DNA of 64,000 nt from Candidatus Poseidoniia archaeon (GCA_030748895.1 JASMLC010000003.1:78594-142593), one strand, 5' to 3'; counted from the stretch's first letter, positions 11,867 to 55,751 are shown. Numbers and translations are program-made. Notes: a model not told the origin generated them from the letters alone.

Positions 11867-11947
11867 ATTTACACCTTTTTTGCGTGAGACGGAAGTCCTC
11901 CGTAATGGGCGGACTGACCTCTCTCGTAGCGCCTTCATACCCAAGGA

Positions 11948-26510: not shown

Positions 26511-27872
26511 TAGCGCGCCCAGCAACGCCGCCGCGGCCGCGACCAGCGCCAGCCGGTCCAGTCCTGGTGAGGGCGAGATGGCCCAGAGCGCGAGGCTGAA
26601 GCCGGCGAAGAGCAGCGCGCTCTGCTGCACCACGGCGCGGCGCGACTGTCCCACCTGCAGCATCAGCACCAGCACCAGCGTGAAAGTGAGCGACGCGAGG
26701 CGGAACGGCGCCGCGTAGCCGAGCAGCGTCCAGAGGCTGGTGCCGAGCAGCGGCCCGATGGCACGCGACAGTGCGCCCAGCGACTGGCTCAGTCCCAGCA
26801 CTGTCCCCTGCTCCTGCGGCCCCACCGCGCGCGAAATCAGCGCGTTGAGCGTCGGCTGGATGAAGCCACTGCCGAGCGAGAAAATCGTCGTTGCCAGCGC
26901 AACGCCTTCGAGCGTCGTCGTGTAGGGAATATAGCCCATACCGAGCAGCATCAACAACGCCCCCGCGCGCGAGGTCCATGCTTCGCCGCAGCGGCGCACC
27001 GCGGGGCCGACGAGGCCGCCCTGCGTCACGATGCTGACGCCGCCCATGTAGGCGAACAATACCCCGGATAGCCGCACCGGCAGCCCGATGCGCTCCTTCG
27101 AGAACTCGACGAAGGTGCCGAAGATGATTGAGAACGCCAGCAGGTAGAGCGTGAAGATAACCAGCAGCAGTCCCAGCCGCGGCTGGCGCAGGTAGGCGAG
27201 CGTCTCGCGCAGCGCTTCCCCCGGCGAGACGCGCGGCCGCACCATGTGGTCTGACGGGAGCGACTCGGGCAGCCAGCGCCAGGCGCAGAAGAGGTTCAGC
27301 AGCGCCAGCCCCGACCCGAAAAACGCCGGCAGCCAGAAGCCCCACTGCCCCAGCAGCCCGCCCAGCGCCGGCCCGCAGACAAAACCCAGCCCGAAGGCGA
27401 CGCCGAGCATCCCCATCCCCTGCGCGCGCTCCTCGGGCGGCGTCACGTCCGCCACGTAGGCGTACGCGGCGGCGTAGTTGGCGCTCATCACCCCCAGCAT
27501 GATGCGCGACAGGAACAGCACCCCCAGCAGGAGGCGGTTGTCGTCGCTCAATCCCAGCGCCGGGTCGGCCAGCCCGAACACCGCGTAGGCGACCGCCGCA
27601 CCACCGAGGCCGAGCATGATGACCGGCCGGCGGCCGATACGGTCGCTCAGCCGCCCCCACGCCGGAAGGCAGACGAACTGCGCCAGCGAGAAGGCGGTAA
27701 TCAGCAGGCCGACGGTGAGGATTGTACCGCCCAGTTCGGCCACGATGTAATTCAGCAACGGGATGAACATCGCGAACCCCGCAAGGTCGATGAACATCGT
27801 CAGCATCAGGATGTGGAGCGGCTTCACCGGCCCCGCAGGCGAGGGGGTGATATCAGGATGCTGCGCCGGCAA
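26493..27872 (-). CDS. MFS transporter
   Basis: 12-TM topology with MFS signature regions (GRLSDRIGRRPVI, tandem 6+6 helices). Confidence 0.85.
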   Translation of the reverse strand: MPAQHPDITPSPAGPVKPLHILMLTMFIDLAGFAMFIPLLNYIVAELGGTILTVGLLITAFSLAQFVCLPAWGRLSDRIGRRPVIMLGLGGAAVAYAVFGLADPALGLSDDNRLLLGVLFLSRIMLGVMSANYAAAYAYVADVTPPEERAQGMGMLGVAFGLGFVCGPALGGLLGQWGFWLPAFFGSGLALLNLFCAWRWLPESLPSDHMVRPRVSPGEALRETLAYLRQPRLGLLLVIFTLYLLAFSIIFGTFVEFSKERIGLPVRLSGVLFAYMGGVSIVTQGGLVGPAVRRCGEAWTSRAGALLMLLGMGYIPYTTTLEGVALATTIFSLGSGFIQPTLNALISRAVGPQEQGTVLGLSQSLGALSRAIGPLLGTSLWTLLGYAAPFRLASLTFTLVLVLMLQVGQSRRAVVQQSALLFAGFSLALWAISPSPGLDRLALVAAAAALLGALLTRKQ

Positions 27873-27939
27873 AACCGGCGGGATAGAACTTGCTTATATC
27901 CCCATGCGCCCTACCGCGCTCCCCGGGAAGAGGATTATC

Positions 27940-32664: not shown

Positions 32665-33165
32665 ATGATGCGAATTCTCTACGGCACGCTGGTGCTGTTA
32701 CTCGTCGCCACGGCGGCCCACGGCGAGGCAACCTACCGCGTCGACGGACTGCCGCTCGACTACGCCCTCGGCGCGACCTACGAGGTCACGCTGACGGTGA
32801 GCGACCCCGACGCGGTGACGGGGGTCACAATCACGACCACTAACGGCTCGCTCTCCGCCGCGGATGAGTTCGGCGAAGGCGAGGCACACGACCTGCAATT
32901 CGGCGCGGACGACGGCTGGAGCTTCTTCTGGCAGGCGCCCGCCGACGTACACGAACTGGGCAAGGGCGAGGCGGAATTCAGCGTCACTTTCGCCGGCGAG
33001 GATGACTCGACCTGGGCCAGCTACGAAACGGTCGTGCGGCCGCCGCCAATCCACGCCGAGGATGAGGAAGCGACGCCCGTTTGGGCGCTGCAACTGGCAT
33101 GGGGCGGCGTCGCGCTGACTGGGATCCTGGCACTGGCTGCGGCATTCGTGCTGCGGCGCGGCTGA
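32665..33165 (+). CDS. Small exported protein with a C-terminal TM anchor
   Basis: Signal peptide MMRILYGTLVLLLVATAAHGEA. Acidic beta-rich body. C-terminal TM WGGVALTGILALAAAFVLRRG. Confidence 0.5.
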   Translation: MMRILYGTLVLLLVATAAHGEATYRVDGLPLDYALGATYEVTLTVSDPDAVTGVTITTTNGSLSAADEFGEGEAHDLQFGADDGWSFFWQAPADVHELGKGEAEFSVTFAGEDDSTWASYETVVRPPPIHAEDEEATPVWALQLAWGGVALTGILALAAAFVLRRG

Positions 33166-37560: not shown

Positions 37561-37854
37561 ATGTCCGAAGAGGATAGAGAATACCCTGAATTTACCGCCC
37601 CGGCGCCTACGGCTGAGAGCGACGGGCCTAATGTAGGCGTTATCCTTGCCGCTGTTTCTGGCTTGCTGGTAGTGGTTGGCTTCTATTTCGGATTCACCAG
37701 CCTGCAGGCGATGGGCGAAGGACTGGTAGCTGCCGACATGGATGCACAGCAGGGGCAACTCATGCTGGGCTACCTGCTGATTACGGGTGGCATATTCCTA
37801 GCGGCGCTGCTCTCGCTGGGCGGCGTTATCCGCGGCTTTTTCTCCAGCGACTAG
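37561..37854 (+). CDS. Small two-TM membrane protein
   Basis: Acidic N-terminus followed by two hydrophobic helices (VILAAVSGLLVVVGFYFGF, LGYLLITGGIFLAALLSLGGV). Confidence 0.4.
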   Translation: MSEEDREYPEFTAPAPTAESDGPNVGVILAAVSGLLVVVGFYFGFTSLQAMGEGLVAADMDAQQGQLMLGYLLITGGIFLAALLSLGGVIRGFFSSD

Positions 37855-38231
37855 ACCGTTACTGTCCGGGTCAGTTTGAGGTCCAGCAGGCCATCGCTTA
37901 GCAGGACTGTGTAGCTGAAGGTGGTCGAGCTACCGTCGGTGCTGCTTGAATCCAGCTTCAGCACCAGCGCATAGCCGTGTGCCGCAAAACTGTTCTCGAA
38001 CTCCCCTGATGCTGTAGCGAATGCCGCCTCGGCAGTCGCGCCGCCATCCAGCTCGGCGTCCAGCGCCGGCGGCAGGTGTGCGTCGAGCATTGTCAGTAGC
38101 GGTGCCGGGTCGTGCCGCTCGCCCTGGTACCGGCCCAGATTGGCCGAGTGGGAAACCGAAATCGAGATAGTGAGCAACGTCAGCGTCATCAGCAGGCCAG
38201 CTATCATCAGCATCTGGCCGCGGTTGTTCAT
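37851..38231 (-). CDS. Pilin-like protein with a class III signal peptide (minor pilin)
   Basis: MNNRGQ|MLMIAGLLMTLTLLTISISV is a class-III-like processing site. Last gene of the pilus operon. Confidence 0.5.
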   Translation of the reverse strand: MNNRGQMLMIAGLLMTLTLLTISISVSHSANLGRYQGERHDPAPLLTMLDAHLPPALDAELDGGATAEAAFATASGEFENSFAAHGYALVLKLDSSSTDGSSTTFSYTVLLSDGLLDLKLTRTVTV

Positions 38232-38668
38232 GCTGTCCCCCGCGGGCCATACCAGAGGCTCAGTTCAAGCTCCCACAGTTCGGAACCGGCCCAGACCAGC
38301 CGGAAGGCGATGCTCACTGTCCCTTCTGGCGTGCCGCGCTCGACCAGCGCCTCACTGCTCCCACCATGCGTCCCCGTCAGGCGATAGCTCGCCGCCGCCG
38401 GCAGCCCACCGTCCAGGTACAACTGCAACGCGCTGCTGTTATCCTCGCTGAGCCAGGTCGCGAGCGTCGATTCGCCTGCGCCAGTCTGCCACTCATCAAG
38501 CACCTGCAACAGCTGCATCCCCTGATGGTGCAAGTTGTCGTCGCCAACCCGGGTCGCATCGCTGGCTGGCAAGCTGATAACCGCGACGTTGACCGCCGAG
38601 GTGAAGAGCGTCGCGACCAGCAGGACCTCCAGCACGTGCATCTGCGCCGCGCGGCCGGGCAACTTCAT
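38228..38668 (-). CDS. Pilin-like protein (minor pilin)
   Basis: N-terminal MKLPGRAAQMHVLEVLLVATLFTSAVNVAV is a hydrophobic helix after a basic segment. Operon context. Confidence 0.45.
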   Translation of the reverse strand: MKLPGRAAQMHVLEVLLVATLFTSAVNVAVISLPASDATRVGDDNLHHQGMQLLQVLDEWQTGAGESTLATWLSEDNSSALQLYLDGGLPAAASYRLTGTHGGSSEALVERGTPEGTVSIAFRLVWAGSELWELELSLWYGPRGTA

Positions 38669-38669
38669 T

Positions 38670-39857
38670 TCAGGCGACAGTACCTGGACTGATGACCGAA
38701 GTAGCGATTCCCATCATTTCGAAGATCAGCCAGCCGATGAAGAGCAACATCGAGGAACGGTTGAACGCCGAGTAGAGCCTGCCAGTGGACATGAAACCGG
38801 CCGCCATGCCGTTGCCAATGCTCTGGACAATTATGCTGTAGAGGAAGATTGTCGAAATCCAGACTTCGTTCAGGTTGCGCACCTGTAGGTTACCGATAGA
38901 CATCGAACCTTCTGCGCCGGTGGCAGAGGCGGAATCGGCAATCGCCGGGACGAAAGTGTTGGCCAGGACAAGGATAATAATCAGGTAGACCAGAAACGAA
39001 GTGTAAACCACCATGATATAGCTGGTAACTTCCTGCGCTCGCTCAGTCTCGAGCGCCTTGATTTCCTTGGCATCATACGAGGCGGCGAGCAGGATGTCCG
39101 AAATGCGGCCTCCCGCACGGTTGGCCTCATCAACCATGCGGACCGCCCGAGTCACGATTGGTGATCGGACTCGCTCGGTGAACATCCCCAGCACCTCACC
39201 GAAAGAAATTCCCCATGAAATCTGAGTCGACATCTTGTGCACTTCGTCGTTGAGGTTTCCATACTCTCCCCGCGCCAGCGTCTGGATAGCAACGGTCATG
39301 CTGAGACCACCCTTCCAGTACTCAGCCAGATCGCGCAGGAAGTCGGGGAATTTCTCCTCGACCCGCGCCCGAAGCTTGTCTTCACGCCAGCCCCATATGC
39401 CATAAGGCAGCATTAGCGCAATCAGTGCGAAAACGTAGTAGTCAAGGGTCGAAATTTCAGGATAGTGTCGATACCAGGTTATGGCTTCTACATCCTCATC
39501 GATACCGCTAATCAGAGGGTCAGCGTCACGGCTCTCGTTCTTGGCAATCGAAGGGAGGCCATACATATTGGGCGTAATCGTGAAGGGGCCATCGTTCATG
39601 GCCTCCGGATTGTCGAACTGCGAGTCACCGTCGAAATCGGTGACGTGCGTTGTCAGGTCGGCCTGGTGGTTCAACTGCCCCAGCGCGATGAGCGCGCCAC
39701 CCATCATCAGCGAGAGGAAGACAACGACATAGGCCGTAATGTCAGTCTTGCCCCCCTTCACCTCGAGCCACTTTTGCGCCAGGCGGTAGGTCATCCAGCG
39801 CCGCTTCTTGCCGGTCCGCTCATCGCGGTAGACCCGTTTCTCGAGATTACCAGCCAT
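38670..39857 (-). CDS. Type IV pilus assembly membrane protein, TadC/FlaJ-like (single T2SF domain)
   Basis: T2SSF-like region DFLRDLAEYWKGGLSMTVAIQTLARG...RAVRMVDEANRAGGRISDILLAAS flanked by TM helices. Confidence 0.75.
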   Translation of the reverse strand: MAGNLEKRVYRDERTGKKRRWMTYRLAQKWLEVKGGKTDITAYVVVFLSLMMGGALIALGQLNHQADLTTHVTDFDGDSQFDNPEAMNDGPFTITPNMYGLPSIAKNESRDADPLISGIDEDVEAITWYRHYPEISTLDYYVFALIALMLPYGIWGWREDKLRARVEEKFPDFLRDLAEYWKGGLSMTVAIQTLARGEYGNLNDEVHKMSTQISWGISFGEVLGMFTERVRSPIVTRAVRMVDEANRAGGRISDILLAASYDAKEIKALETERAQEVTSYIMVVYTSFLVYLIIILVLANTFVPAIADSASATGAEGSMSIGNLQVRNLNEVWISTIFLYSIIVQSIGNGMAAGFMSTGRLYSAFNRSSMLLFIGWLIFEMMGIATSVISPGTVA

Positions 39858-40798
39858 TAATCGATTGCGACCTCATTGCTCAGTGAGAGGAAAATATAGG
39901 CGAAGAAAATCTGGATTATCGGGAACATCAGGAAGACCATTATGTAGAGGTGCTCTTCCTCCAGTTTCATCCCGGACCCGGAAACCCAGAAAGTAATCAC
40001 GGCCATAATCATCGCGAAAATTGGCAGTGCCACCGCCATCACCACATACGCTTCCGCAAAGAGTGCCATCTGCTGGATGACGCTCTTCACATGCACCCGG
40101 TTGGCCTGAGCGTAGTATTCTGCCCGGTTCAGGAAGTAGAGCTTCAGGTTACCGCCCGAGGTAAGCGTGCCAACAATTCCCTGCAGGAACTCGGCAAACC
40201 GTTCCGAGGGCGACCGTTCGACGCCCTCCTTGAGTGTCGTCACCAGGTCACGGCCCATGAATTCGATGGAGTGGTAAATCCAGGCGGCGTCGCGCGAAAT
40301 CTCGCCATAGATATCCTCGTTACGGGCGAGCGACTTGAAAATCATCGCCGGCGTTGCGTTAGCCGCCGCCATCGCTGCCGTGTAGCTGGCGGCGAAGGGC
40401 AGCTTGCGGTCCATATCCGTAGCGCGCGAGCCGACTCTCAGCCCGGGCTCGAGCCAGTTCACCATCGCTATCAGCAGCGGCAGCACGATAACCAGCACCA
40501 GCGCCAGAACGGCCTGTATAAATTCCGAGACGATAATCGGCTCACCGTTCGGGCCGGTCATCTGCGCCAGGAATGGCACGCCGACGGCAATGAACGCAAA
40601 CACCAGTACCAGTCCGGCGATAAATGTAACTAGAACCTGCATCGCGGCGTGGGCAACATAGCCTTCGGGCAGCAGCGGAATGCGTGCCTTCACGAGCTGT
40701 TGCTTGAGCTTGTAGGAATCCTTGGTCAGCAAGCGACCCAGCCAGCCGAAAAGGAGCAGGCTGAGCGACTGCAGACCGCTTAGAACCACCGGTGCCAC
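39857..40798 (-). CDS. Type IV pilus assembly membrane protein, TadB/FlaJ-like (single T2SF domain)
   Basis: T2SSF-like region FAEFLQGIVGTLTSGGNLKLYFLNRAEYYAQANR plus TM helices. Stop/start overlap with the next gene. Confidence 0.75.
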   Translation of the reverse strand: MAPVVLSGLQSLSLLLFGWLGRLLTKDSYKLKQQLVKARIPLLPEGYVAHAAMQVLVTFIAGLVLVFAFIAVGVPFLAQMTGPNGEPIIVSEFIQAVLALVLVIVLPLLIAMVNWLEPGLRVGSRATDMDRKLPFAASYTAAMAAANATPAMIFKSLARNEDIYGEISRDAAWIYHSIEFMGRDLVTTLKEGVERSPSERFAEFLQGIVGTLTSGGNLKLYFLNRAEYYAQANRVHVKSVIQQMALFAEAYVVMAVALPIFAMIMAVITFWVSGSGMKLEEEHLYIMVFLMFPIIQIFFAYIFLSLSNEVAID

Positions 40799-43056
40799 CA
40801 GCGCGGATTGGCCGAGCGCTCAACACGCTTCGCCAGTTCAGCCTGCAGCTTGGTCGTAGCCTTGGCCTGCCGGGCCTCTTCCTTGGCTGCTGCGCTCGCC
40901 TGCTTGTCCGGGCTGGAGGCGAGCTTGACCTGCCGCGCCTCGGCCCCGACACGGGCAGATAGCTCACGGTTACACGACTTCAGTAGCCGGCCCGCTTCGC
41001 GCACGGACAGGCTGGAAACATCTCCAAGCCCGAGCTGCGCCGCGGCAGGCGTCAGCTGTCGCAGCGGGGCGTAGCGGGCCTGTGCCTTCAGCATATCACG
41101 CTCGAGATAGGCGTCCGACTTGGCGCGTCGGGTCGCCTCCTTTGCCTCAAGCTTGGCGCGCTTGCCTTCATCGTCAGTTGCGGCCGCCCGGGCATCGGCC
41201 TTCGCACGAGCCGCTTCTTCCTTGGCTAATCGCTTCTGGAACTTCTGCTGCACCTTGGCCGGGAACTCGGTGATATCGACACCCTCCTCGGCCGCGCCAG
41301 CACCACTCAAGTCAAGGTCACGGTCCTTCATCTTGCGGCGACGTTTGCGGCCGCCCACCTGCAGGTCAGCGTAAACCTGGCGCATCACGTCCTCGGGGTG
41401 TACGTAATACTCGGCCACTACACGGGCAAAGTCGCGATAGTCCCGGATACTCTTCTTGAGGCACCACTCAATGACCAGCTGCCGCCGCTTGATTTCATCC
41501 ATGATTTCAACGCGGTTCAGGTTAGCTTTCATCATGATTTTCTCAAGCACGTAGGACTTGCCGGTGAAGACGAACTCGTCGGTGGCGTTGTCCCAGCGGA
41601 AAGCCTCGTTGGTCAGCAACTCGTGCGAATGGGGATCAATACCGATAATCTCGACGATGTTCTTGTTGCGCCGCACGCGCTTCCCACCAACGCGGGTCTG
41701 AATCTGGATTGAAATCGCGTCAAGCGATGGAATCAGCACGCGCGGAATCTCAATCGGCTTGTTCTCAAGCCGGTGCACCAGACTCTGGATTGAATCGGCG
41801 TGGAAGGTGGAATAGGTAGTGTGCCCCGTCGCCATGGCCTGGAACAGCACATAAGCCTCTGCGCCACGAATTTCTCCCACAATGATGTATTCCGGCCGCT
41901 CACGCAGCGCTGCTCGCAGCAGGTCGTACATGTCGACCACTCCCGCCGCCTTGACGCCCGCCATGGCGGATTCACCACCGAAACCCTCGCGGGTACAGCC
42001 GGGAATCCAGTTGGGATGCGGCAGGTTCAGCTCACGCGTTTCCTCAATACTCACAATCTTGTGCTGCCACGGCAGGAAGAGCGAGCATGCGTTGAGCGAA
42101 GTGGTCTTGCCGGAAGCAGTACCACCGACAAACAGCATCGACATGCCGTATTGCATCGCGAGCCAGAAGAAGGCAATCTGCATCGAGGAGAAGGTCTTGA
42201 ACTCTAGCAGGTCCACCGGCGTGAACGGTTCGTCACGGAAACGCCGGATGGTAAAGGTCGAACCTTTCGTGGAGACCTCACGGCCCAGCGTCATGACGAT
42301 ACGCGAGCCGTCCATCAACGTTGCGTCGAGCAGCGGTTCAGCAATCGAGATGTGCTTACCGCAGCGTTGTGCCATGCGGATGATGTATCGCTCCAGCTCG
42401 AATTCGTCAGACCAGAGGACATTGGTCCGCAGCGACTCGAAGCGCCGGTGGTAGACGAACACCTCGACGCCGGGGCCGTCGCAGGAAACATCCTCGATGT
42501 TCGGGTCGTGCATCATGGTATCAATCATGCCGTAGCCCACCAGGTCACGCTCGATGTAGTAGTGGATTTTCTCGCGGTTGCTCTTGCGGCTCGGAAGCCG
42601 GTACGCGTCGAGGATGTCGTCAACCGCCTGATGCAGGAACTCGTCCTGCCCCTCCTCGAGGGTCTCGCGGCTGATGTTGAGCGCTCGCTGGAGCACTGAC
42701 TGGATAGTGTCCAGATCCTGCTTCTCCTGCTCGCTCGCCTTGGGTTCGACAACGTAGTAGAATCGTGAATAGTCACGCTTGTCGAACAGGATTCTGACAT
42801 AGGAGAAGGGTGGCCTTACGGGGTAGGTGTCGAGTTCCTCGAAATCCTCGCCCAGCTCGATGTCGTCCATGACGAGGTCGTGGATGACGCCTGCCTTCTC
42901 GGCCGCCTTGCGGGCCTGCTCCTGCTGCTTGCGTTCCTTGCGCAAGCGCCGTTTTTCACGCCATGAAAGCTGGCTCTCGTCGACCGTTTCCTCGGACGGC
43001 GATAGCATACCAAGAGGGTCTGATTCCGTGTCAATCGAGTCGCCGGCAGCTCCCAT
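40780..43056 (-). CDS. FlaI/ArlI/TadA-family secretion ATPase with an acidic N-terminal extension and a charged coiled-coil C-terminal extension of about 200 aa
   Basis: Walker A GGTASGKTT, Asp box, Walker B and His box (EIRGAEAYVLFQAMATGHTTYSTFHA). The core is about 520 aa and the protein 758 aa. The K/R/E/A-rich tail ends NPRWWHRWF. Confidence 0.85.
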   Translation of the reverse strand: MGAAGDSIDTESDPLGMLSPSEETVDESQLSWREKRRLRKERKQQEQARKAAEKAGVIHDLVMDDIELGEDFEELDTYPVRPPFSYVRILFDKRDYSRFYYVVEPKASEQEKQDLDTIQSVLQRALNISRETLEEGQDEFLHQAVDDILDAYRLPSRKSNREKIHYYIERDLVGYGMIDTMMHDPNIEDVSCDGPGVEVFVYHRRFESLRTNVLWSDEFELERYIIRMAQRCGKHISIAEPLLDATLMDGSRIVMTLGREVSTKGSTFTIRRFRDEPFTPVDLLEFKTFSSMQIAFFWLAMQYGMSMLFVGGTASGKTTSLNACSLFLPWQHKIVSIEETRELNLPHPNWIPGCTREGFGGESAMAGVKAAGVVDMYDLLRAALRERPEYIIVGEIRGAEAYVLFQAMATGHTTYSTFHADSIQSLVHRLENKPIEIPRVLIPSLDAISIQIQTRVGGKRVRRNKNIVEIIGIDPHSHELLTNEAFRWDNATDEFVFTGKSYVLEKIMMKANLNRVEIMDEIKRRQLVIEWCLKKSIRDYRDFARVVAEYYVHPEDVMRQVYADLQVGGRKRRRKMKDRDLDLSGAGAAEEGVDITEFPAKVQQKFQKRLAKEEAARAKADARAAATDDEGKRAKLEAKEATRRAKSDAYLERDMLKAQARYAPLRQLTPAAAQLGLGDVSSLSVREAGRLLKSCNRELSARVGAEARQVKLASSPDKQASAAAKEEARQAKATTKLQAELAKRVERSANPRWWHRWF

Positions 43057-43066
43057 TCTTACTCGT

Positions 43067-43522
43067 CTATCCTGCGGTCAGGGTGACCACTTGAGATGTT
43101 GCGTCATACTGCACGACTATATAAGAAGTGCTAGAGTACACTTTCCCATCTATAGCCGTGGCGGGCGCAAGCGGAAAATCCGCTGTGTATCGACCCCCCA
43201 CAGGAGCCTTGCTGACCACTTTCAGGCCGGTCTCGGTACCGATTATCGTGTAGAGCACGCCGTGCTCCTCGGTGGCGGCGGGAATACTCAGAGTGGCGTC
43301 AATTCCGGGATAGGCACGGACCATCGCGAGCAGCTCCTCAACCAGTTGCTGCAGTCGCACGCCCACCTGTTCCACCTCTTCCTGTGCCGTGAAGGTATGG
43401 TTGCCCTTCAGTACGTCGGCGACCGCCACGGTCACCGACGACAGCAGCAGTACTGCCAGCAACGAGGTGTAGATGAACCCTATTTCCTGCGCGCCTGACT
43501 CAGCGCAATCCAAACGATACAT
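43067..43522 (-). CDS. Pilin-like protein (minor pilin)
   Basis: N-terminal ...SGAQEIGFIYTSLLAVLLLSSVTVAV is a class-III-like hydrophobic helix. 151 aa. Operon context. Confidence 0.45.
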   Translation of the reverse strand: MYRLDCAESGAQEIGFIYTSLLAVLLLSSVTVAVADVLKGNHTFTAQEEVEQVGVRLQQLVEELLAMVRAYPGIDATLSIPAATEEHGVLYTIIGTETGLKVVSKAPVGGRYTADFPLAPATAIDGKVYSSTSYIVVQYDATSQVVTLTAG

Positions 43523-44492
43523 GCACCGTCCTCTCCATCAGGCGTAGGTCCAGCGAGGTCACCTGCGTCAGGTATACCTCGTCATGCTGTAGGTCACGGC
43601 TGAATCCCCACAGGGACTGGAAGAAGCCGTAGGTTGCATACTGCGCGTCGCCTTTCACGACGATTCGCAAGCTGTAAGCCGCAATGCTCCCGGAATCGCT
43701 GCCGCCCTGGTTGCGCAGCGAGAAGTCAAAGTTGGAGGGGCCAGTCATACTGCGCATCTGCGAGCCACTGTTGTTGTAGGTAACGAGGTAAAGTGACAGC
43801 GCATCCACGTTTCCGCTGCCGCGCACCAGCGGGCGGTCCTCGAAGTAGTATCCGCCACCCGGCTCATGCGACAGTACCCCGCCGTTGAACAATCGCATCT
43901 GGAACTGCCCTGCCGTCGAGCGGTACTTGTAGGAGAGGACATCCTGCATGTAGTAGCGGAACTCGCCGATGGCGGTACCGTTGGCGGCAGCAGCGGTACC
44001 GGTCACGCCCGCCACGATGGGGGGCAGCGGTCCCAGCCGGTTGCCGTCGGTGTCACCGCTCCAGACAGTCCCGTTGGGGTAGGTGATGGTGACCGTCAGC
44101 GTCGCCACGGTTTCGGTCAGGTCCTCGACGCGCAGGATTGTGGCGCCCGCTTCCACGTTGCGCGCCGAAAGCTGCGCCCAGGAGACGGTGCTCCAGCAGA
44201 GCAGCAGGTCTTCCTGCGCCTTCTTCAGCGTGAAACTGCCCGAGCCGAGCGAGACGGTCGAGGTGCGCGAGGCGCCCTCACCCTGTAGCAGCACCTGGTC
44301 CATGTCAGCGTCCAGATTGAGCAGGTTGGAGCGCGTCGTCGCATACTGCGCCCACGCCTCATTGTTCTGGATTTGCGGGATGCCCCACGCCAGCATGGTA
44401 CCTACGATGGTGACCATCATTACCATAATCAGGATGGTGCCGATAATCTGGCTTACACCATCCTCGTCGCGAGGCAGGAGCTGGCGCTTCAC
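43500..44492 (-). CDS. Archaeal type IV pilin (major pilin/adhesin candidate, 330 aa)
   Basis: MKRQLLPRDEDG|VSQIIGTILIMVMMVTIVGTMLAW is a class III signal peptide. First gene of the locus. A TATA (ttttatag) lies about 50 nt upstream on the minus strand. Confidence 0.7.
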   Translation of the reverse strand: MKRQLLPRDEDGVSQIIGTILIMVMMVTIVGTMLAWGIPQIQNNEAWAQYATTRSNLLNLDADMDQVLLQGEGASRTSTVSLGSGSFTLKKAQEDLLLCWSTVSWAQLSARNVEAGATILRVEDLTETVATLTVTITYPNGTVWSGDTDGNRLGPLPPIVAGVTGTAAAANGTAIGEFRYYMQDVLSYKYRSTAGQFQMRLFNGGVLSHEPGGGYYFEDRPLVRGSGNVDALSLYLVTYNNSGSQMRSMTGPSNFDFSLRNQGGSDSGSIAAYSLRIVVKGDAQYATYGFFQSLWGFSRDLQHDEVYLTQVTSLDLRLMERTVHVSFGLR

Positions 44493-49735: not shown

Positions 49736-49824
49736 GCAGCCTTTCAGTCACCAGCGCTGCAACGCTTCTCAATATCATTATATAGGGTAAGCCGTCCTCA
49801 CAGGCGACCTGACCGGAGGTTACG

Positions 49825-50520
49825 GTGGCTCTTCGAAAAAGACGTAATTTCGGACTGATTTTCGCATTGCTTTCAGCCGCACTCCTGACGGGCGGAAGCG
49901 CATTCGGGTATTCCGGAGGCGGTGACGCCGGCGGCGATGACTGGGCTGCTGACGTGATGCTCCATGGTTGCAACTGCCACAATCCCGACCAGAGCGGAAC
50001 TGGCCTCTGGTCGCTCGAGAACTTCCCGGCGCGCTACGAACCGGGAGCGACTTACAACCTGACGCTCACGATTGCAGACAGCGGCGTCAGTGACGCTGCC
50101 GACCCGGCAGCGGCGGGCGGCTTCCTGATGCGCGTCACCAACGGCAGCTTCGAGGGCGGCACCGATTTCTGGGTGAACGACGATAGTCGCATGCTCTCGC
50201 ACAACGCCGATTCGGATGACCAGCGCAACTGGACTGTGGCGTGGACTGCGCCCGAGGAGGGCAGCGGCGACGCAGTGCTGACCGTCTACTTCAACGTCGT
50301 CAACGGTGAGAACGGCAACGATCCCGGCGACGGCTGGACCCGGCTCGTAGCAGTCTCGCTCGGGACGCCGCAGGCGCTGGAGGACGAAGTGGGTATCCAC
50401 GAACTGGGGGTCAGCCTGAAACAGTACTGGATTGGGCTTATCGGTATCGGCATCACGATGGTCTTCGTGCTGCTGGCGTACATCGTACTACGAGGGGGGA
50501 GCGCCAATTACCGGGGTTAA
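49825..50520 (+). CDS. Exported reeler-like beta-sandwich protein with a C-terminal TM anchor. First gene of the Rieske/cyt b operon.
   Basis: GTG start with GGAGGT 5 nt upstream and a TATA (cattatatagg) further upstream. Signal LIFALLSAALLTGGSAFG. Motif HGCNCH...Y.PG.TY.L.L...GF.M.V.NG...W.VAW.AP.EGSGD.V.F. C-terminal TM IGLIGIGITMVFVLLAYIVL. Confidence 0.6.
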   Translation: MALRKRRNFGLIFALLSAALLTGGSAFGYSGGGDAGGDDWAADVMLHGCNCHNPDQSGTGLWSLENFPARYEPGATYNLTLTIADSGVSDAADPAAAGGFLMRVTNGSFEGGTDFWVNDDSRMLSHNADSDDQRNWTVAWTAPEEGSGDAVLTVYFNVVNGENGNDPGDGWTRLVAVSLGTPQALEDEVGIHELGVSLKQYWIGLIGIGITMVFVLLAYIVLRGGSANYRG

Positions 50521-50536
50521 CGAAATCCTCGAGCAG

Positions 50537-50872
50537 GTGGCTCGCGGCGAGCTGACGCAGGCGGACGCGCAGAAGCTGCTCGGCACCCGCGGTGACGAGC
50601 AGCTCGGCGCCATCCGGCACGAGACGCCGGCGCCGGAGCAGCTCTCGATTTTTGCAATTATCATGCTGCTGATGGTGGTGCAACTGCTCTACGACGCGCT
50701 CTTCATCTACGGACTGCTCGAGGGGTGGGACCAGACTTTCCTCTCGTTCATCATCGGAATGGCGATGCTGACGTTCGGGCTGATGCTCGACCTCTACCGC
50801 CGCAGCTTCCTGCCCGACGTACTTGAGACCAAGCGCCGCCGCGACAAGGTCGTGCCGCGGCTGGAGCGATAG
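50537..50872 (+). CDS. Small two-TM membrane protein (start uncertain)
   Basis: The ORF continues in frame behind the reeler gene. GTG at 50537 or ATG near 50660. Hydrophobic helices IFAIIMLLMVVQLLYDALFIY and FLSFIIGMAMLTFGLML. Confidence 0.35.
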   Translation: MARGELTQADAQKLLGTRGDEQLGAIRHETPAPEQLSIFAIIMLLMVVQLLYDALFIYGLLEGWDQTFLSFIIGMAMLTFGLMLDLYRRSFLPDVLETKRRRDKVVPRLER

Positions 50873-51547
50873 ATGGCGGTCACGCGACGCGACTTCCTGA
50901 AAGGCGCGCTGGCGCTTGCCGGCAGCGGCCTTGGCGGTGCGCTGGCAGTGCCGGGACTCAAGACGCTGCTGCCGCCACCGGTAACGCACTGCAACCCAGA
51001 CGAGGTGCATGACACGCTGCTCTACAAGGAGCGGGAGCCGGGAACGTGGTACGAGCCGATGGCGGGCAACGTGGCGCGCAAGGAGGACTTCGCGCTGAAC
51101 CAGTCGGCAATGGTAACCTGGGCGCCGAAGGAACTGGAAGCGGAGCTGGGGAGCTGCGAAGCCGTGCTGACGCTGGTGAAGGTCCCGACCGAGGATTCGA
51201 TGGCCGAATGGGGTATCCCTGATGACAGTGGCAACACGATGATGATGGCGTACAACACCTACAAGTGCCCGCACCTCTGCTGCAAGCCTGTTTTCAAGGA
51301 CGAGGGCATCGGCATCAGCGGAGATTCGTACGAGAATATGTTCCTCTGCCCGTGCCACCTGAGCCGCTTTGACCCGCTCTCGATTGTCGAGAACATCGAT
51401 GAGAAAGGACGGCCGGTAATGGTCGCTGAACTGGTCGAGGGGCCGTCGCCATATGGGTTACCGATTGTGCCAATCATCGAACGTGACGGCGGACTGGTGG
51501 GGAGAACAGATAAGCTGGAATGGCTGAAATATTGTGGACAGGGATGA
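50873..51547 (+). CDS. Rieske [2Fe-2S] iron-sulfur protein with a Tat signal
   Basis: Twin-arginine MAVTRRDFLKGALALAG. Rieske boxes CPHLCC and CPCHLSRF. Confidence 0.9.
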   Translation: MAVTRRDFLKGALALAGSGLGGALAVPGLKTLLPPPVTHCNPDEVHDTLLYKEREPGTWYEPMAGNVARKEDFALNQSAMVTWAPKELEAELGSCEAVLTLVKVPTEDSMAEWGIPDDSGNTMMMAYNTYKCPHLCCKPVFKDEGIGISGDSYENMFLCPCHLSRFDPLSIVENIDEKGRPVMVAELVEGPSPYGLPIVPIIERDGGLVGRTDKLEWLKYCGQG

Positions 51548-52491
51548 GAACTATAACAGCGGCTGCAACCGCCCTGGCGCTGCTCGCGCTGGCCGGGAGC
51601 GCCCGCGCCGAGACACCTCTGCTGGAGGAGTTCATGCGCGAGTACACCTTCCTGCTGATATTCCTCTCACTGGTCGGGGCGGTAGCCGGCTTCGTCTTCC
51701 TGTGGGCGACCGGGGCGCTGCCGCAGGTGCTGCTGCTGACCTGGGTCTGGCTCGATGAGCGGTTCGCATTACGGCGCTACGCCAGCCTGGCGCGGCGCGA
51801 ATACTACTCGGTGGTCTTCACGCTGCTCCCGGCGAGCGGTCGCACCTTCCCGCAGTCGCACACCGAACGGTACAACGTCAAGGCGGTCTGGTACTGGTAT
51901 CCCTTCTACTGCCTCGGCGGGCTCTCATTTCTGGCATTCATCATCCTGACGATTACCGGCATCTACCTCGGCTTTTACTATGTCCCTGACGGGGATTTTG
52001 TTGAGGACCCTGCGACCGGCGAGATGACTTCCGGCGCATATGAATCGATGGAGCTGATTATGACTGAGGTGAGTTTCGGCTACATCATGCGCGCGGTGCA
52101 CCACTGGGCGGCGCACTTCATGGTCGCTGCGGTATTCCTGCACATGATGCGGGTCTACTTCGTGGGGGCGTACCGCAACCCGCGCGAGCTGAACTGGATA
52201 CTCGGTTCAATCCTGCTGCTGGTGACCATTTTCTTCGGCTACACCGGCTACCTGCTGCCGTGGGACGAGCTGGGCTTCGCCGCCGGCTCAATCGGCCTCG
52301 AGATGGCGACCTCGATTCCGCAGATGGGGCCGCTGATAGCGCAAATCGTCTTCGGCGGGACACAGCTCACCGGCGCGACCGTGCTGCGGATGTACTGGCT
52401 GCACGTCTTCGTGCTGCCGGCGGTCGGCATCGCGCTGATGATACTGCACATGGCCATAGTCTGGATACAGGGGGAGGCGGAGCCGCACTAA
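51544..52491 (+). CDS. Cytochrome b, N-terminal (b6-like) heme-binding subunit
   Basis: ATGA overlap with the Rieske stop. Cyt b signatures W.DERFALRRY, GGLSF.AFIILTITGIYLGFYYVPDG, RAVHHWAAHFMVAAVFLHMMR, TGYLLPWD (PEWY-like). Confidence 0.85.
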   Translation: MRTITAAATALALLALAGSARAETPLLEEFMREYTFLLIFLSLVGAVAGFVFLWATGALPQVLLLTWVWLDERFALRRYASLARREYYSVVFTLLPASGRTFPQSHTERYNVKAVWYWYPFYCLGGLSFLAFIILTITGIYLGFYYVPDGDFVEDPATGEMTSGAYESMELIMTEVSFGYIMRAVHHWAAHFMVAAVFLHMMRVYFVGAYRNPRELNWILGSILLLVTIFFGYTGYLLPWDELGFAAGSIGLEMATSIPQMGPLIAQIVFGGTQLTGATVLRMYWLHVFVLPAVGIALMILHMAIVWIQGEAEPH

Positions 52492-53549
52492 TGGACGATA
52501 TCGAGACACTGATTAGTGAGTACCAGCAGGAACGGCAGGCCGATGATGCGGTGGAGCGCATCGGGCGCAAGACCGAGTTCACGGGTGAAACCCCGCGGCA
52601 GGCCCACTCGGCGCTTGAGGCGTCACACACCAAGGGCGAGCCGCTCTATCCACACGAATTGCTGCGCGACAGCGTGCTCACGCTCTATGTCACCTCGGCA
52701 CTCTTTTTCCTGTCGGCTTTCGTCCCGCCGCCGCTGCACAAAGCGGCCGACCCGGCCGCCGCGACCGCTTTCCCGCCGCCGCTGCCTGACTGGTACCTAC
52801 TCTGGGCGTTCGGCTGCCTGAAGGTGGCGTGGGATATCGAGTTCACGATTTTCGGCCACCACTTCTTCCTGATGACTGCCAAGGTGTGGGGAACGCTGGT
52901 GCAGGGGCTTATCGTGGGACTGGTCGTCGCGGTGCCATTCATCGACCGCGCTCTGGGATATCTCATCGACCCCGGGCCCAAAGAGGGAATTATGGACGTC
53001 CTGAACAGCGGCCACGCGCGACGACCCATCGAGGACCCCGTCCGCGCCGCAATCGGCGTCTGGGGCATTGCCTTCGTCGTGATGCTTTCCATCTACTCCA
53101 TCAACGCCAACATCGCGCTCTACTACCCCGCCATCACGACATCCGTGCTGGCGCAGGTGACGCTGTGGGGGCCGCTCGCGTGCGGCGGGCTGACCTATCT
53201 CTGGCTCGACCGGCGCCGCGCCGAAGGGGCGCGGCCGCTCAGCGACGAGGAGCGCTTCGAGCTCTACCGCGACGGGATTGCCAGCCGCCGCATGCAGCGC
53301 ATCTACGAGTTCAAGCTCAACCGCTGCTACCAGTGCGGCCTCTGCGACGACATCTGCCCGGTGCGCACCAACGAGGGCGAGGAGGAGCTGAACATTATCT
53401 TCAACACTTTCCAGAACGAGCACGACGGCGTCGCGAAATGGTCGTGCATCACCTGCGGGATGTGCACCGCCATCTGCCCGCAGAACATCGAATACGTGGA
53501 TTACGTCCTCGAGCAGCGCGCAATAGCGCTGCAAGGAGCCGCAACATGA
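52491..53549 (+). CDS. Cytochrome b C-terminal (subunit IV-like) domain fused to a 2x[4Fe-4S] ferredoxin domain
   Basis: TAATG overlap. PetD-like PPLPDWYLLWAFGCLK plus TM helices, then CYQCGLCDDICP and CITCGMCTAICP. Confidence 0.8.
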   Translation: MDDIETLISEYQQERQADDAVERIGRKTEFTGETPRQAHSALEASHTKGEPLYPHELLRDSVLTLYVTSALFFLSAFVPPPLHKAADPAAATAFPPPLPDWYLLWAFGCLKVAWDIEFTIFGHHFFLMTAKVWGTLVQGLIVGLVVAVPFIDRALGYLIDPGPKEGIMDVLNSGHARRPIEDPVRAAIGVWGIAFVVMLSIYSINANIALYYPAITTSVLAQVTLWGPLACGGLTYLWLDRRRAEGARPLSDEERFELYRDGIASRRMQRIYEFKLNRCYQCGLCDDICPVRTNEGEEELNIIFNTFQNEHDGVAKWSCITCGMCTAICPQNIEYVDYVLEQRAIALQGAAT

Positions 53550-54430
53550 GTCGCACCGAACCCTACGCCCGCACCATCCCGCACCCGCTCTTCGAGCGCA
53601 TGATAATCAACGACGCCGGTACGCCCGACGAGGCGCCGTGGCAGCCCGAGCGGCAGCACGAATACGGCTACTTCCCCGGTTGCGTCGACTTCATGGATGT
53701 CGAAGTCAAGTTTTCGCACCTCAACAAGGGCGACGCCGACCACGCCTCGATTGCCGCCGCGGCTATCAAGCTGATGAACGCCGCCGGTATCGACCCGCTG
53801 ATTCTCGACATGAACTCGTTCAAGTGCTGCGGGCACGACCCGCTCTGGCAAGGCCAACTGGAGGTCTTCGACGAATTGAAGGCGCACAACCTGCGGCGCA
53901 TGCAGGAGAGTGGCATCCGCACGCTGGTCGTCACCTGCGCTGAAGGCTACCGCACCTTCGCGGTCGACTACGACCTGCCCGGCCAAGGCATCCAGGTCGA
54001 GCACATCACGCAGACGTTGCGCGGGCGCGGGTTGAAGTTCAAGTCGCCCGAACCGGTGCGCGTCACCTTCCATGACCCGTGCCGCCTCGGCCGCATGATG
54101 GGCGAATACGACGCGCCGCGCGACCTTATCCAATTGGTGGACGGCGCCGAGATGGTCGAGCTGGAGAACAGCCGCGAGAAGGCGCTCTGCTGCGGCGTTT
54201 CGTCGATGATGTATTGCAATGACGCGACCAAGGCGGTGCGCAAGAAACGGCTCGATCAGGGCACCGACGCCGAAATCCAGGTGATGCTGGGCGGCTGTCC
54301 CAAGTGCTACATGCACATGCAGTGCATGCTCAACGAAGAGCGCATGGACCCCGGCGAGCACAACCACGCGTTCGAGATGCTGGACCTGATGCAGTTCCTC
54401 TCCGCCTGCCTCGTCGAGGAAGCCGCCTGA
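53546..54430 (+). CDS. HdrB/GlpC-like CCG-domain (Cys-rich) protein
   Basis: Two CCG domains: FPGC...CCGHD and HDPCRLGR...CCGVSS, plus GGCPKCYMHMQC. GGAG RBS. ATGA overlap with the upstream gene. Confidence 0.8.
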   Translation: MSRTEPYARTIPHPLFERMIINDAGTPDEAPWQPERQHEYGYFPGCVDFMDVEVKFSHLNKGDADHASIAAAAIKLMNAAGIDPLILDMNSFKCCGHDPLWQGQLEVFDELKAHNLRRMQESGIRTLVVTCAEGYRTFAVDYDLPGQGIQVEHITQTLRGRGLKFKSPEPVRVTFHDPCRLGRMMGEYDAPRDLIQLVDGAEMVELENSREKALCCGVSSMMYCNDATKAVRKKRLDQGTDAEIQVMLGGCPKCYMHMQCMLNEERMDPGEHNHAFEMLDLMQFLSACLVEEAA

Positions 54431-55269
54431 TGGCTGGCATCGACCGACAATACCTTTCCGCCTGGAAGCAGGCCGCGACGCACGACGGCGACAGCGAGCC
54501 GGTGCAAATCTGGACGGAGGATGGCAGCTACGGCGGCCTCGACTCGGGCAAGCTGGGAATCTGGGGCACCGTCGTCGGCGTCGATTTCGACATGTGCATC
54601 GCCGACGGGGCGTGCATCGACGCCTGCCCGGTCGACGTCTACGAGTGGCTCGAGACGCCGGGCCACGCCGCGTCGGACAGGAAGGCATTCATGGTGCGCG
54701 AGCCGGACTGCATCGTCTGTCGTGCCTGTGAGGAAGCGTGCCCAGTTGATGCGGTACTCATCACTGCTCCGGGCGACGTCGAGGCTGCGATAGCGGGCGC
54801 GGACACCGCATCCGCCCCGGCCGTTGCGGAAGCGGCCGTCACTGAGAGCGAAGCCCCGGCCGAAGCCGCCGTAGCGGCCGAACCGACGAACGCGGCGCTG
54901 GCGTGGGAGCCGAAGTCCGACGGCTGGCTACAGCGCGTGAAGGCGTCGCTGGTGGACGCCGACCTGCCCGATACCGGACTGGCGAAGGCGAAGCCGCTCT
55001 TCAAGGAGCTGCGCAAGGAAAGGCTCGATTCACTTACGCGCGGCAAGGAGTTCATGGCGCTGGTGCACAACGAGAAGTGCATCGGCTGCACGCAGTGCGT
55101 CTACTTCTGCAACTTCGCATCTATTGACATGATTGGATGGGAGCTAGAGACTCGCACCGGCGCGTTCGAATCGAAAAAGGCACTGATTGTCGAGGATACC
55201 TGCACCGGCTGCACCCTCTGCGTCTTTGCCTGCCCCGTCGAAGCAATCACGATGGAAGCGCGGGCGTGA
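54430..55269 (+). CDS. Polyferredoxin (four CxxCxxCxxxCP [4Fe-4S] motifs) with a central acidic Ala/Glu/Pro linker
   Basis: CIADGACIDACP, CIVCRACEEACP, CIGCTQCVYFCN and CTGCTLCVFACP. TGATG overlap with the HdrB-like gene. Confidence 0.8.
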   Translation: MAGIDRQYLSAWKQAATHDGDSEPVQIWTEDGSYGGLDSGKLGIWGTVVGVDFDMCIADGACIDACPVDVYEWLETPGHAASDRKAFMVREPDCIVCRACEEACPVDAVLITAPGDVEAAIAGADTASAPAVAEAAVTESEAPAEAAVAAEPTNAALAWEPKSDGWLQRVKASLVDADLPDTGLAKAKPLFKELRKERLDSLTRGKEFMALVHNEKCIGCTQCVYFCNFASIDMIGWELETRTGAFESKKALIVEDTCTGCTLCVFACPVEAITMEARA

Positions 55270-55751
55270 GCCCCGCTGCGTCAGATAACCTGAAGCTGCG
55301 CTACTCCATCATCGCTACGACCTGGCTACTAGTAGTATGGCTTGCGCTAATCGCAACGCGCTCAGGTGATCCCGGCTTTGGGCAGGTCTCGTTCATCTTG
55401 CTCGGCGCACTCATTACCTGGGTCGTGTTGCGCGCCTGGCCACCTCCAATGGTCGAGCCGCCCCCGGCCAAAATCGAAATCGAGACGCCGCTCGACGCCC
55501 CGGAGGGAGGCATCAGCGAGAACGGCTACCGGCGGCTGACCTGGGCGACGATGATACTCGCCACCGGCTGCGTCGCGGTCTTCCTGGAGTGGCTGATACA
55601 GGCGCGCTTCGCCGCCGCGCTGGGGATGCTGCTGCTCGGCAGCGTCATCGCGGTGCTGCCGCTCGTCATCCCGGTGCGCGAGACCGAGGCGACCATTCGG
55701 CGCCTTGCGAAGCGCAAGCGGCGCAAGGCGTGGCGCCGGCGCGAGCAATAG
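55266..55751 (+). CDS. Small membrane subunit (3-4 TM) with a basic C-terminal tail
   Basis: GTGA overlap with the polyferredoxin stop. Helices IATTWLLVVWLALIA, VSFILLGALITWVVL, ATMILATGCVAVFLEWLI and LGMLLLGSVIAVLPLVI, then KRKRRKAWRRREQ. Confidence 0.5.
   Translation: MSPAASDNLKLRYSIIATTWLLVVWLALIATRSGDPGFGQVSFILLGALITWVVLRAWPPPMVEPPPAKIEIETPLDAPEGGISENGYRRLTWATMILATGCVAVFLEWLIQARFAAALGMLLLGSVIAVLPLVIPVRETEATIRRLAKRKRRKAWRRREQ

Follow-up and report, generated by a model that had tools for sequence, protein, structure and literature searches.

A Rieske/cytochrome b operon of Marine Group III archaea with a predicted cytoplasmic iron-sulfur module of the EtfD/HdrD type

Eight open reading frames (ORFs), here called g1 to g8, fill positions 49825-55751 of a 64,000-nucleotide stretch of DNA from a Candidatus Poseidoniia archaeon (GCA_030748895.1 JASMLC010000003.1:78594-142593; the whole stretch is termed the window herein), and all of them run in the same direction (+). 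They appear to encode a Rieske/cytochrome b complex with a module on the cytoplasmic (n) side of the membrane, in which an iron-sulfur wire of the EtfD/HdrD type is placed on a new membrane anchor; the system has barely been noticed and is uncharacterized. The eight genes very probably encode one complex with a cytoplasmic iron-sulfur module, because they are translationally coupled, their synteny is conserved, subunit IV is invariably fused to a ferredoxin (Fer4) domain, and relatives carry subunit IV, Fer4, and CCG (non-cubane cluster) domains on a single chain. The full mechanistic statement, a Q-cycle complex with a cytoplasmic ferredoxin- or flavodoxin-type input port to the quinone reduction site, is in our judgment evenly poised. 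An earlier note made from the sequence alone had proposed a Rieske/cytochrome b unit wired to a thiol/disulfide- or organic acid-reactive module and acting as an electron-bifurcating or reverse-flow device; it was right about the wiring and probably wrong about both the chemistry and the direction.

The host is a deep-sea Marine Group III (MGIII) archaeon. The window is high-GC archaeal DNA (about 66% GC), g1 is 100% identical to a hypothetical protein from a "Candidatus Poseidoniia archaeon" metagenome-assembled genome (MAG) and shares 87% identity with one from Marine Group III CG-Bathy2, and the top genome matches for g5 were MGIII/Poseidoniia MAGs and single-cell genomes. Reading of the ORFs and their junctions confirmed the gene order and every junction given in the earlier note: gaps of 16 and 0 nucleotides (nt) for g1/g2 and g2/g3, respectively, ATGA overlaps for g3/g4 and g5/g6, TAATG for g4/g5, TGATG for g6/g7, and GTGA for g7/g8. 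For the start of g2, GTG at 50537 was preferred to the other candidate, TTG at 50432. The domain calls were each borne out by profile searches and motifs (Table 1). A scan for sigma-70 promoters and terminators gave nothing above shuffled sequences and is not applicable to archaea.

Gene order was compared across loci recovered with the g5 peptide from one genome per GTDB species (48 loci), using tblastn with all eight proteins and both flanking genes. The full order g1 to g8 and both flanks recurred in about 40 independent MGIII MAGs and single-cell genomes, wherever the contig was long enough, with 59 to 93% identity in g5. The g5 family is small; a phmmer search against 1.84 billion cluster representatives returned 12 at E < 1e-30 and 47 at E < 1e-10, from sources named as uncultured Thermoplasmata/Thermoplasmatota, including RBG_16_68_13. 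Two types make up the family: Cytochrom_B_C plus Fer4 (336 to 458 amino acids [aa]) and, in other Thermoplasmatota, Cytochrom_B_C plus Fer4 plus two CCG domains on one chain (570 to 932 aa). By Rosetta-stone reasoning, the latter fusion of subunit IV, Fer4, and CCG shows g5 and g6 to be functional partners and, with the conserved g5 fusion, upholds the proposal of one transcription unit in which a Rieske/cytochrome b core is wired to an HdrD-like module. Around these genes the neighborhoods follow a template of a p-side (outer-side) protein, DUF7318, the Rieske protein, the cytochrome b N-half, subunit IV-Fer4 with or without CCG, a CCG protein, a ferredoxin-like protein, and a small ORF. The last part of this template varies: at three loci (L050:10909-14074, L043:9431-11218, and L044:5903-7459) the polyferredoxin is replaced by HdrA-like FAD/NAD-binding, Fer4, and FlpD/MvhD-domain proteins. 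One locus (L053:595-4498) starts with a c-type cytochrome and continues with the subunit IV-Fer4 fusion and then a UbiA-family gene, and the locus from RBG_16_68_13 (L056) lies between A-type ATPase and Nuo genes.

CCG domains, whose absence would have refuted the earlier note, are present in g6, and two trivial readings were considered. A frameshift or assembly artifact, which the earlier note had named as a risk, is ruled out by full-length fusions in at least 40 independent MAGs and single-cell genomes and in >100 protein clusters; the fusion is conserved across MGIII. That the arrangement is already a standard annotated subunit set was also rejected. In their source records the proteins are called no more than "ferredoxin," "PreA subunit," "4Fe-4S dicluster protein," and "cytochrome b(C-terminal)/b6," and we found no characterized archaeal bc complex with these subunits.

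The Q-cycle core is complete, comprising the histidine ligands of cytochrome b, the PDWY motif of subunit IV, both Rieske boxes, and the Tat signal. In g3, an exact Tat motif (TRRDFLK, with a TAT_signal match) precedes Rieske box I (CPHLCC; 51266-51283) and box II (CPCHLS; 51347-51364). Its Pfam Rieske match is below threshold (0.054), and since the family profiles score under their curated cutoffs, we regard g3 as a divergent Rieske protein. The four heme-ligating histidines of g4 are kept at b6-type spacing within 52099-52143 and 52402-52449, and the segments HHWAAHFMVAAVFLH and HVFVLPAVGIALMILH, which hold the ligands of hemes bL and bH on helices B and D, are conserved in 45 cytochrome b sequences; the best PDB matches are cyanobacterial and chloroplast cytochromes b6 (3.8e-40). 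The sequence FYCLGG of g4 (CLGG at 51910-51921) is identical to that of Mastigocladus laminosus b6, where Cys35 carries heme cn, and this cysteine is found in 13 of the 45 sequences, namely, in the window clade, in CG-Bathy1-type loci, and in distant Thermoplasmata. For g5, the Pfam Cytochrom_B_C match is weak (0.028), and matches to the QcrB C-half reach 1.2e-9 and 1.5e-6. The Qo motif PDWY (52785-52796) and all eight cysteines of g5 are invariant in 60 aligned homologues, and the AlphaFold2 (AF2) model has four transmembrane (TM) helices (residues 54-77, 130-159, 183-202, and 217-247). DUF7318 (g2), for which we know of no characterized function, keeps its position in distant loci. The four helices of g8 are hydrophobic; the gene is syntenic in MGIII, has only about 30% identity in distant clades, and matched no family in profile searches.

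The N terminus of g4 consists of a signal-like peptide and an extra helix. At four loci in other Thermoplasmatota (L043:5228-7840, L044:1169-3799, L050:6426-8924, and L054:898-3174), the cytochrome b N-half carries an exported N-terminal extension of 450 to 650 residues with four Big_5 Ig-like repeats, and in L043 and L044 a C-x5-C-H sequence is found near its start. The short signal-like peptide and extra helix of g4 look like a remnant of this extension.

The iron-sulfur module begins in the C terminus of g5, where two complete CxxCxxCxxxCP motifs (53325-53360 and 53445-53480; Fer4 dicluster, 1.7e-9) form a domain resembling HdrC, QmoC, and NuoI (HdrC matches of 1.5e-8 in NCBIfam and 7e-6 to PDB 7bkb_C). 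Solved complexes have the start of subunit IV on the n side. With the four TM helices of g5, this start predicts that the fused ferredoxin domain is cytoplasmic, as the signal-less g6 and g7 would be too.

Of the two CCG domains of g6, domain 1 (53672-53947) has C46, C94, C95, C131, and G134, i.e., four of the five cysteines, and domain 2 (54071-54307) has all five (C179, C215, C216, C251, and C254). The sole PDB sequence relative of g6 is mycobacterial EtfD (9ojn_A, Rv0338c family; 2.1e-16), in the alignment with which KCCG of g6 corresponds to C538-T539 and TCAEG to C581-P-H-C584. Domain 2 retains its five cysteines in all 42 g6 homologues, and domain 1 is variable: the seven sequences of the window clade read C, CC, C, G, and 31 other MGIII sequences read C, C-S/T, CxxC, the latter being the pattern of the linear [3Fe-4S] site of EtfD. 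All five cysteines of domain 1 occur at three distant loci only (L042-L044), which thus keep all ten CCG cysteines. As a separate observation, the first CCG site (window 53822-53947, g6 residues 94 to 134) shows an apparent ligand swap, CC...CAEG in the window clade versus CS/CT...CAEC in other MGIII; both forms have four cysteines, at different positions.

In EtfD, which belongs to an aerobe, electron transfer flavoprotein (ETF) is wired to a b heme and menaquinone by two cubane clusters, a non-cubane [4Fe-4S] cluster, and a linear [3Fe-4S] cluster; those of the CCG domains are buried and noncatalytic (PMC13083937). The CCG domain of EMO can be assembled in E. coli. A preprint on EMO likewise describes a shared proximal and a variable distal cluster that relay electrons rather than perform catalysis (bioRxiv 2026.08.18.745454). 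The MGIII proteins have this layout, a cubane domain plus CCG domains with a conserved proximal and a variable distal site, and they lack the two complete five-cysteine CCG motifs of an Hdr active site. The CCG clusters of g6 are therefore predicted to be, probably, an electron wire and not an Hdr-type catalyst.

For g7, the four-cluster polyferredoxin of the earlier note, four cluster motifs in two dicluster domains were indeed present, but the first motif (CxxDxxCxxxCP) is of the [3Fe-4S] type, so that g7 is a 7Fe plus 8Fe protein and not one with four [4Fe-4S] clusters. Residues 33 to 113 (54526-54768) match the zinc-containing 7Fe ferredoxins of Acidianus and Sulfolobus, a physiological ferredoxin type in aerobic archaea (PDB 2vkr/1xer; 2e-27/2e-28), and both core motifs, CxxDxxCxxxCP and CxxCxxCxxxCP, are present in this N-terminal domain. 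It is followed by an Ala/Glu-rich linker and a C-terminal 2x[4Fe-4S] domain (55078-55236). The zinc ligands of the Sulfolobus tokodaii ferredoxin are His16, His19, His34, and Asp76; two of the ligand positions are replaced in g7 (LGIHGT to LGIWGT and KKADPV to RKAFMV), which leaves the zinc site incomplete.

The N-terminal domain of g7 is exchanged within MGIII. In 17 loci, including CG-Epi1 and the single-cell genome AG-343-J07, the 7Fe ferredoxin at the start of the g7 orthologue gives way to a Flavodoxin_1 domain (7.5e-27 and 4.1e-28), and the linker and C-terminal 2x[4Fe-4S] domain are unaltered. The ferredoxin form is kept in 19 loci and in the window, and the two forms never occur together. 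Interchange of ferredoxin and flavodoxin is the classic behavior of soluble low-potential carriers under iron scarcity, and the same swap in a tethered domain marks g7's N-terminal part as the site where the complex exchanges low-potential electrons. Every flavodoxin-form locus has SLGG instead of CLGG in cytochrome b; the CLGG/SLGG polymorphism may reflect iron or heme economy in surface clades. Occurring as it does within a respiratory complex, the ferredoxin-to-flavodoxin swap could serve as a marker for iron economy among archaea of the surface ocean.

On the p side, the operon starts with g1, whose parts are, in order, an N-terminal signal/anchor, a Gly-rich linker, a short helix, a G-C-x-C-H motif (49966-49980), a beta-sandwich, a C-terminal TM helix, and a cytoplasmic tail. 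The sandwich is of the reeler type: NCBIfam choice-of-anchor V matched at 7.6e-20 (Pfam Reeler at 0.038 only), and Foldseek with the AF2 model (pLDDT 66.5) found reeler domains only (E 1e-6). The reeler fold suspected in the earlier note is thereby confirmed, and the echo of the eukaryotic reeler-DOMON-b561 association that it also saw is an analogy only. The GCxCH motif is invariant, as are C49, C51, H52, and H126 in 43 sequences and the RGGSxxYRG of the cytoplasmic tail, and the motif is also present in the equivalent first genes of distant lineages, as GCYCH in L050 (two copies) and as GCFCH in L051. A search of the g1 alignment profile against PDB sequences gave no match at E <= 10. The sequence LHGC had the look of a lipobox, a reading rejected by inspection because the motif lies about 20 residues past the hydrophobic region. 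No cytochrome c or cupredoxin is encoded within the eight-gene operon, and related operons open with a gene for a c-type cytochrome (L053) or for a protein weakly resembling plastocyanin (L056), the latter in agreement with the Angelarchaeales locus of Diamond et al. (PMC9038741). As the position of g1 is held by these carriers in relatives, g1 is a candidate acceptor of Rieske electrons and, by position, a candidate p-side partner of the Rieske protein; its resemblance to cytochrome f is a lead and not a finding. The window contains a second choice-of-anchor V/reeler-like protein (32665-33165, + strand; 166 aa, with a C-terminal TM helix), which is 28% identical to g1 (E 1e-10) and is without the N-terminal GCxCH segment.

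We propose that these parts work together as follows. The core would be a split b6f-type quinol oxidase, with g3 outside, g4 carrying two b hemes and, in the window clade, the heme-cn cysteine, and g5 contributing PDWY; the n-side wire would consist of the two cubane clusters of g5, the CCG subunit g6, and g7, the outermost domain of which appears to be a captured 7Fe ferredoxin (a flavodoxin elsewhere). Low-potential electrons from ferredoxin- or flavodoxin-dependent enzymes, e.g., 2-oxoacid:ferredoxin oxidoreductases, or possibly from ETF, would enter at g7 and pass over g6 and the g5 clusters to heme bH/cn, so that quinone is reduced at the n-side site. The quinol would be reoxidized at Qo, one electron going to the Rieske protein, an outer acceptor (with g1 as the candidate), and a terminal oxidase, and the other recrossing the membrane. 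With one cytoplasmic electron per Qo turnover, quinone would act catalytically, and the complex would be complex III and a ferredoxin:quinone reductase in one, with about 2 H+ per electron. The same scheme has long been proposed for ferredoxin-driven cyclic flow through b6f. A bolder version, in which the tethered ferredoxin or flavodoxin feeds heme cn/bH and the Qi site through the EtfD-like clusters and g1 represents an unrecognized class of p-side redox subunit (a single-Cys heme or metal protein, cytochrome f-like), we hold to be rather doubtful; such a complex would be a built-in natural counterpart of the ferredoxin:quinone reductase activity that has long been debated for b6f-type complexes.

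Several points weigh against this mechanism. SLGG replaces CLGG in 30 of the 45 cytochrome b sequences (30 of the 39 from MGIII), and two non-MGIII sequences have neither; heme cn therefore cannot be essential to the mechanism. ETF, not ferredoxin, is the proven donor for the closest characterized CCG proteins. AF2 confidence is low for the Fer4 domain of g5, and g1 has no recognized cofactor motif. Among the relatives, L053 has no CCG gene despite its Fer4 fusion, and the add-ons found at some loci resemble those of Hdr/Qmo systems, which can run in either direction.

The direction of flow is one point on which the proposal of the earlier note differs from ours. On an output reading, bifurcation at Qo would send a low-potential electron via bL and bH out through the iron-sulfur wire to ferredoxin, flavodoxin, or a disulfide, making the complex a bifurcating or reverse-flow device. 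The architecture itself is symmetric as to direction, the Qo machinery is complete, the HdrA-like FAD, Fer4, and FlpD/MvhD proteins of relatives are typical of bifurcating Hdr/Qmo systems, and a similar proposal has been made for anammox Rieske/cytochrome b complexes with cytoplasmic oxidoreductase subunits (PMC5600118). We nevertheless consider it unlikely. By established bioenergetics, moving electrons from the p to the n side and then uphill to the level of ferredoxin would oppose the membrane potential; quinol-driven reduction of ferredoxin or a disulfide was ranked lower because it runs both against the membrane potential and uphill in redox potential. In addition, CCG domain 1 is degenerate, and the sister group, Marine Group II (MGII), is described as an aerobic heterotroph (PMC6336850). 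Organisms of this kind are expected to generate reduced ferredoxin in their metabolism and to need a way of reoxidizing it, not a further source of it. The 7Fe domain and its swap for flavodoxin fit low-potential input better than this thermodynamically less likely output. If electrons do enter from the cytoplasm, the CCG subunit might instead dock ETF or a flavoprotein of the GlcD/LldD type, so that beta-oxidation or organic acids would feed quinone and g7 would serve as an internal relay or a second entry. Of known proteins, EtfD is closest to g6, an AlphaFold3 model of EtfD places ETF at the CCG clusters, as does, for EMO, the EMO preprint (bioRxiv 2026.08.18.745454), and the MGII sister group has been described as a degrader of proteins and fatty acids (PMC6336850). 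However, no etf or dehydrogenase gene is present in the operon or its conserved flanks, and a flavoprotein port leaves it unexplained why a genuine ferredoxin, exchanged for flavodoxin in other loci, should form the outermost domain of g7; this possibility we rate as fairly low.

The chemistry of the CCG domains could also be taken at face value. The combination of Fer4 and two CCG domains is the architecture of HdrD and DsrK, and the distant L042-L044 proteins retain all ten cysteines, which would suit a true membrane-bound thiol/disulfide oxidoreductase (an analogue of HdrDE or DsrMK with a bc-type cytochrome in place of HdrE or DsrM) acting on a disulfide or trisulfide of a small thiol or carrier protein. 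Such an enzyme is improbable, since domain 1 is short of one cysteine in every MGIII sequence, the missing cysteine differing by clade, the solved aerobic relatives use these clusters noncatalytically, and the neighborhood has no DsrC-like or thiol-cofactor gene; the thiol/disulfide-reactive site of the earlier note is accordingly an unlikely one, with EtfD, the nearest solved relative, using its clusters only as a wire. It is more improbable still, to the point of being hardly credible, that the operon merely houses two enzymes, an ordinary Rieske/cytochrome b complex (g1 to g5) and an unrelated soluble iron-sulfur pair (g6 and g7): every homologue has the ferredoxin domain on the same chain as subunit IV, several lineages have the CCG domains joined to subunit IV-Fer4 as well, and the gene order is invariant across distant Thermoplasmatota.

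Comparison with known systems shows where the parts of the complex recur. With b6f and the b6c complexes of Firmicutes and heliobacteria it shares the split of cytochrome b at the same point, the b6-type histidine spacing, P(E/D)WY, and a Tat-exported Rieske protein, and the FYCLGG of the window is the heme-cn motif of cyanobacterial b6, although the cysteine is lost in most MGIII clades. Unlike these complexes, the window operon has a subunit IV extended by a fourth helix and by the 2x[4Fe-4S] domain fused to it, additional CCG and polyferredoxin subunits, an extra N-terminal helix in cytochrome b, and a reeler-like GCxCH protein instead of cytochrome f or c1. The nearest described core is that of the haloarchaeal halocyanin-Rieske/split cytochrome b cluster (Baymann et al. 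2012, PMC3509893), which is also archaeal, has 4+4 helices, is flanked by small hypothetical membrane genes, and begins with a p-side carrier; that carrier is a halocyanin, and the cluster as described has no iron-sulfur or CCG genes and no heme-cn cysteine, whereas the window has both an n-side module and the cysteine. The complex III-like locus of Angelarchaeales (PMC9038741), with a cytochrome b N-half, subunit IV-Fer4, a CCG protein ("hdrD-like"), and a small Fer4 protein ("rnfB-like"), is evidently the same system, and we recovered this locus type as L056; it differs in having a plastocyanin-like protein for g1 and a 164-aa single-dicluster protein where the window has a 279-aa 7Fe+8Fe polyferredoxin.

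The n-side module has its counterparts elsewhere. EtfD/EMO and HdrDE likewise combine two cubane clusters and two CCG-bound unusual clusters on a membrane b-cytochrome serving (mena)quinone, and g6 corresponds to EtfD ligand for ligand, with the distal CCG site variable and the proximal one conserved. Their cytochrome, however, is of the five-helix NarI/HdrE type, without a Rieske protein or Q cycle, and their known donors are ETF or methanophenazine, whereas the window has a bc/b6f-type cytochrome b plus subunit IV as the anchor and splits the module over g5 and g6. The anammox (Kuenenia) Rieske/cytochrome b complexes resemble it in anchoring a cytoplasmic oxidoreductase on a short cytochrome b (PMC5600118), but with unrelated subunits (FAD/NAD(P) oxidoreductase, multiheme c, and HAO-like); the window operon has no NAD(P) domain. 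QmoABC offers a further parallel, since QmoC fuses an HdrC-like dicluster to a membrane b-cytochrome and the relative L050 adds HdrA-like FAD, Fer4, and FlpD/MvhD proteins; the membrane part of QmoC is HdrE-like, though, and QmoABC has no Rieske or CCG protein, while the window has no HdrA or MvhD.

That the arrangement had not been described as such, as the earlier note supposed, is nearly true, except that two papers mention parts of it (PMC9038741 and PMC6336850). Diamond et al. (2022) reported hdrD-like and rnfB-like genes beside complex III in Angelarchaeales and suggested ferredoxin entry in one sentence; they noted a plastocyanin-like protein upstream of the Rieske gene, with no mention of the subunit IV fusion and no analysis or experiment (PMC9038741). 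Tully (2019) found that MGII has cytochrome b and a Rieske protein without a canonical complex III, and RnfB without the rest of Rnf (PMC6336850). Dibrova et al. (2017) reviewed the anammox Rieske/cytochrome b complexes with cytoplasmic oxidoreductase subunits and proposed that the arrangement is ancestral (PMC5600118). Our literature search found no paper on the subunit IV-ferredoxin fusion, the EtfD-like CCG subunit, the ferredoxin/flavodoxin swap, the heme-cn cysteine in these archaea, or the GCxCH protein, and the papers on Lutacidiplasmatales and Yaplasmales do not describe the module.

MGIII, and probably MGII too, are abundant ocean heterotrophs, and the operon would explain how they reoxidize ferredoxin and how their complex III works; for MGII, an unexplained orphan RnfB and an "MGII-specific complex III" have been reported. 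More broadly, the operon joins the Rieske/cytochrome b Q-cycle core and the Hdr/EtfD CCG wire, two families that had been assigned different membrane anchors. It provides a natural setting in which to test the contested injection of ferredoxin electrons at the n side (heme cn/Qi) of b6f-type complexes and a living example of the early cytochrome bc proposed by Dibrova et al., with a cytoplasmic oxidoreductase on a short cytochrome b.

Table 1. Features of the Rieske/cytochrome b operon and loci with the flavodoxin form of g7
Feature	Position	Strand	Basis
TATA-box-like ATTATATA	49777..49784	+	read from sequence; putative promoter role
GGAGGT upstream of g1 start	49815-49820	+	read from sequence
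g1, exported reeler-like/choice-of-anchor V beta-sandwich protein	49825..50520	+	profile and fold searches
g2, small two-helix membrane protein, DUF7318	50537..50872	+	Pfam PF24002, 8.8e-14
g3, Tat-exported Rieske [2Fe-2S] protein	50873..51547	+	Tat motif, boxes, TIGR01416 3.3e-9
g4, cytochrome b6-type N-half	51544..52491	+	Pfam Cytochrome_B 2.9e-37
g5, subunit IV/cytochrome b C-half with fused 2x[4Fe-4S] HdrC-like domain	52491..53549	+	profiles, motifs
g6, predicted cytoplasmic two-CCG (non-cubane cluster) HdrB/EtfD-like protein	53546..54430	+	Pfam CCG 3.8e-20
g7, polyferredoxin	54430..55269	+	PDB 2vkr/1xer matches, motifs
g8, small four-helix membrane protein with basic C-terminal tail	55266..55751	+	hydrophobic helices; no family match
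Flavodoxin-form loci: L014, L015, L020, L021, L023-L032, L038, L040	e.g., L026:9996-10985		

The genes flanking the operon are housekeeping genes, encoding a GT-C glycosyltransferase-like membrane protein and a CCA-adding enzyme; a further one presumably encodes ribosomal protein S15. For the CCA-adding enzyme downstream, the mechanical ORF call (TTG at 55705) runs into the end of g8, but the conserved protein starts near ATG 55780 (MQELLER...), which puts the actual gap behind g8 at about 28 nt.

Elsewhere in the window, two very large ORFs lie in regions of markedly lower GC (0.50 at 28001-30000, versus about 0.67 elsewhere): one of 1,384 aa with CARDB (27763-31917, + strand) and one of 1,524 aa with PKD and Ig-like domains (7370-11944, - strand). 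Both probably encode surface proteins and are perhaps horizontally acquired or compositionally constrained. A type IV pilus/archaellum-like cluster occupies 37851-44492 (- strand) and encodes a T2SSE ATPase with a PilB3 C-domain (758 aa), two T2SSF membrane proteins, a DUF7289 pilin-like protein, and small prepilin-like ORFs.

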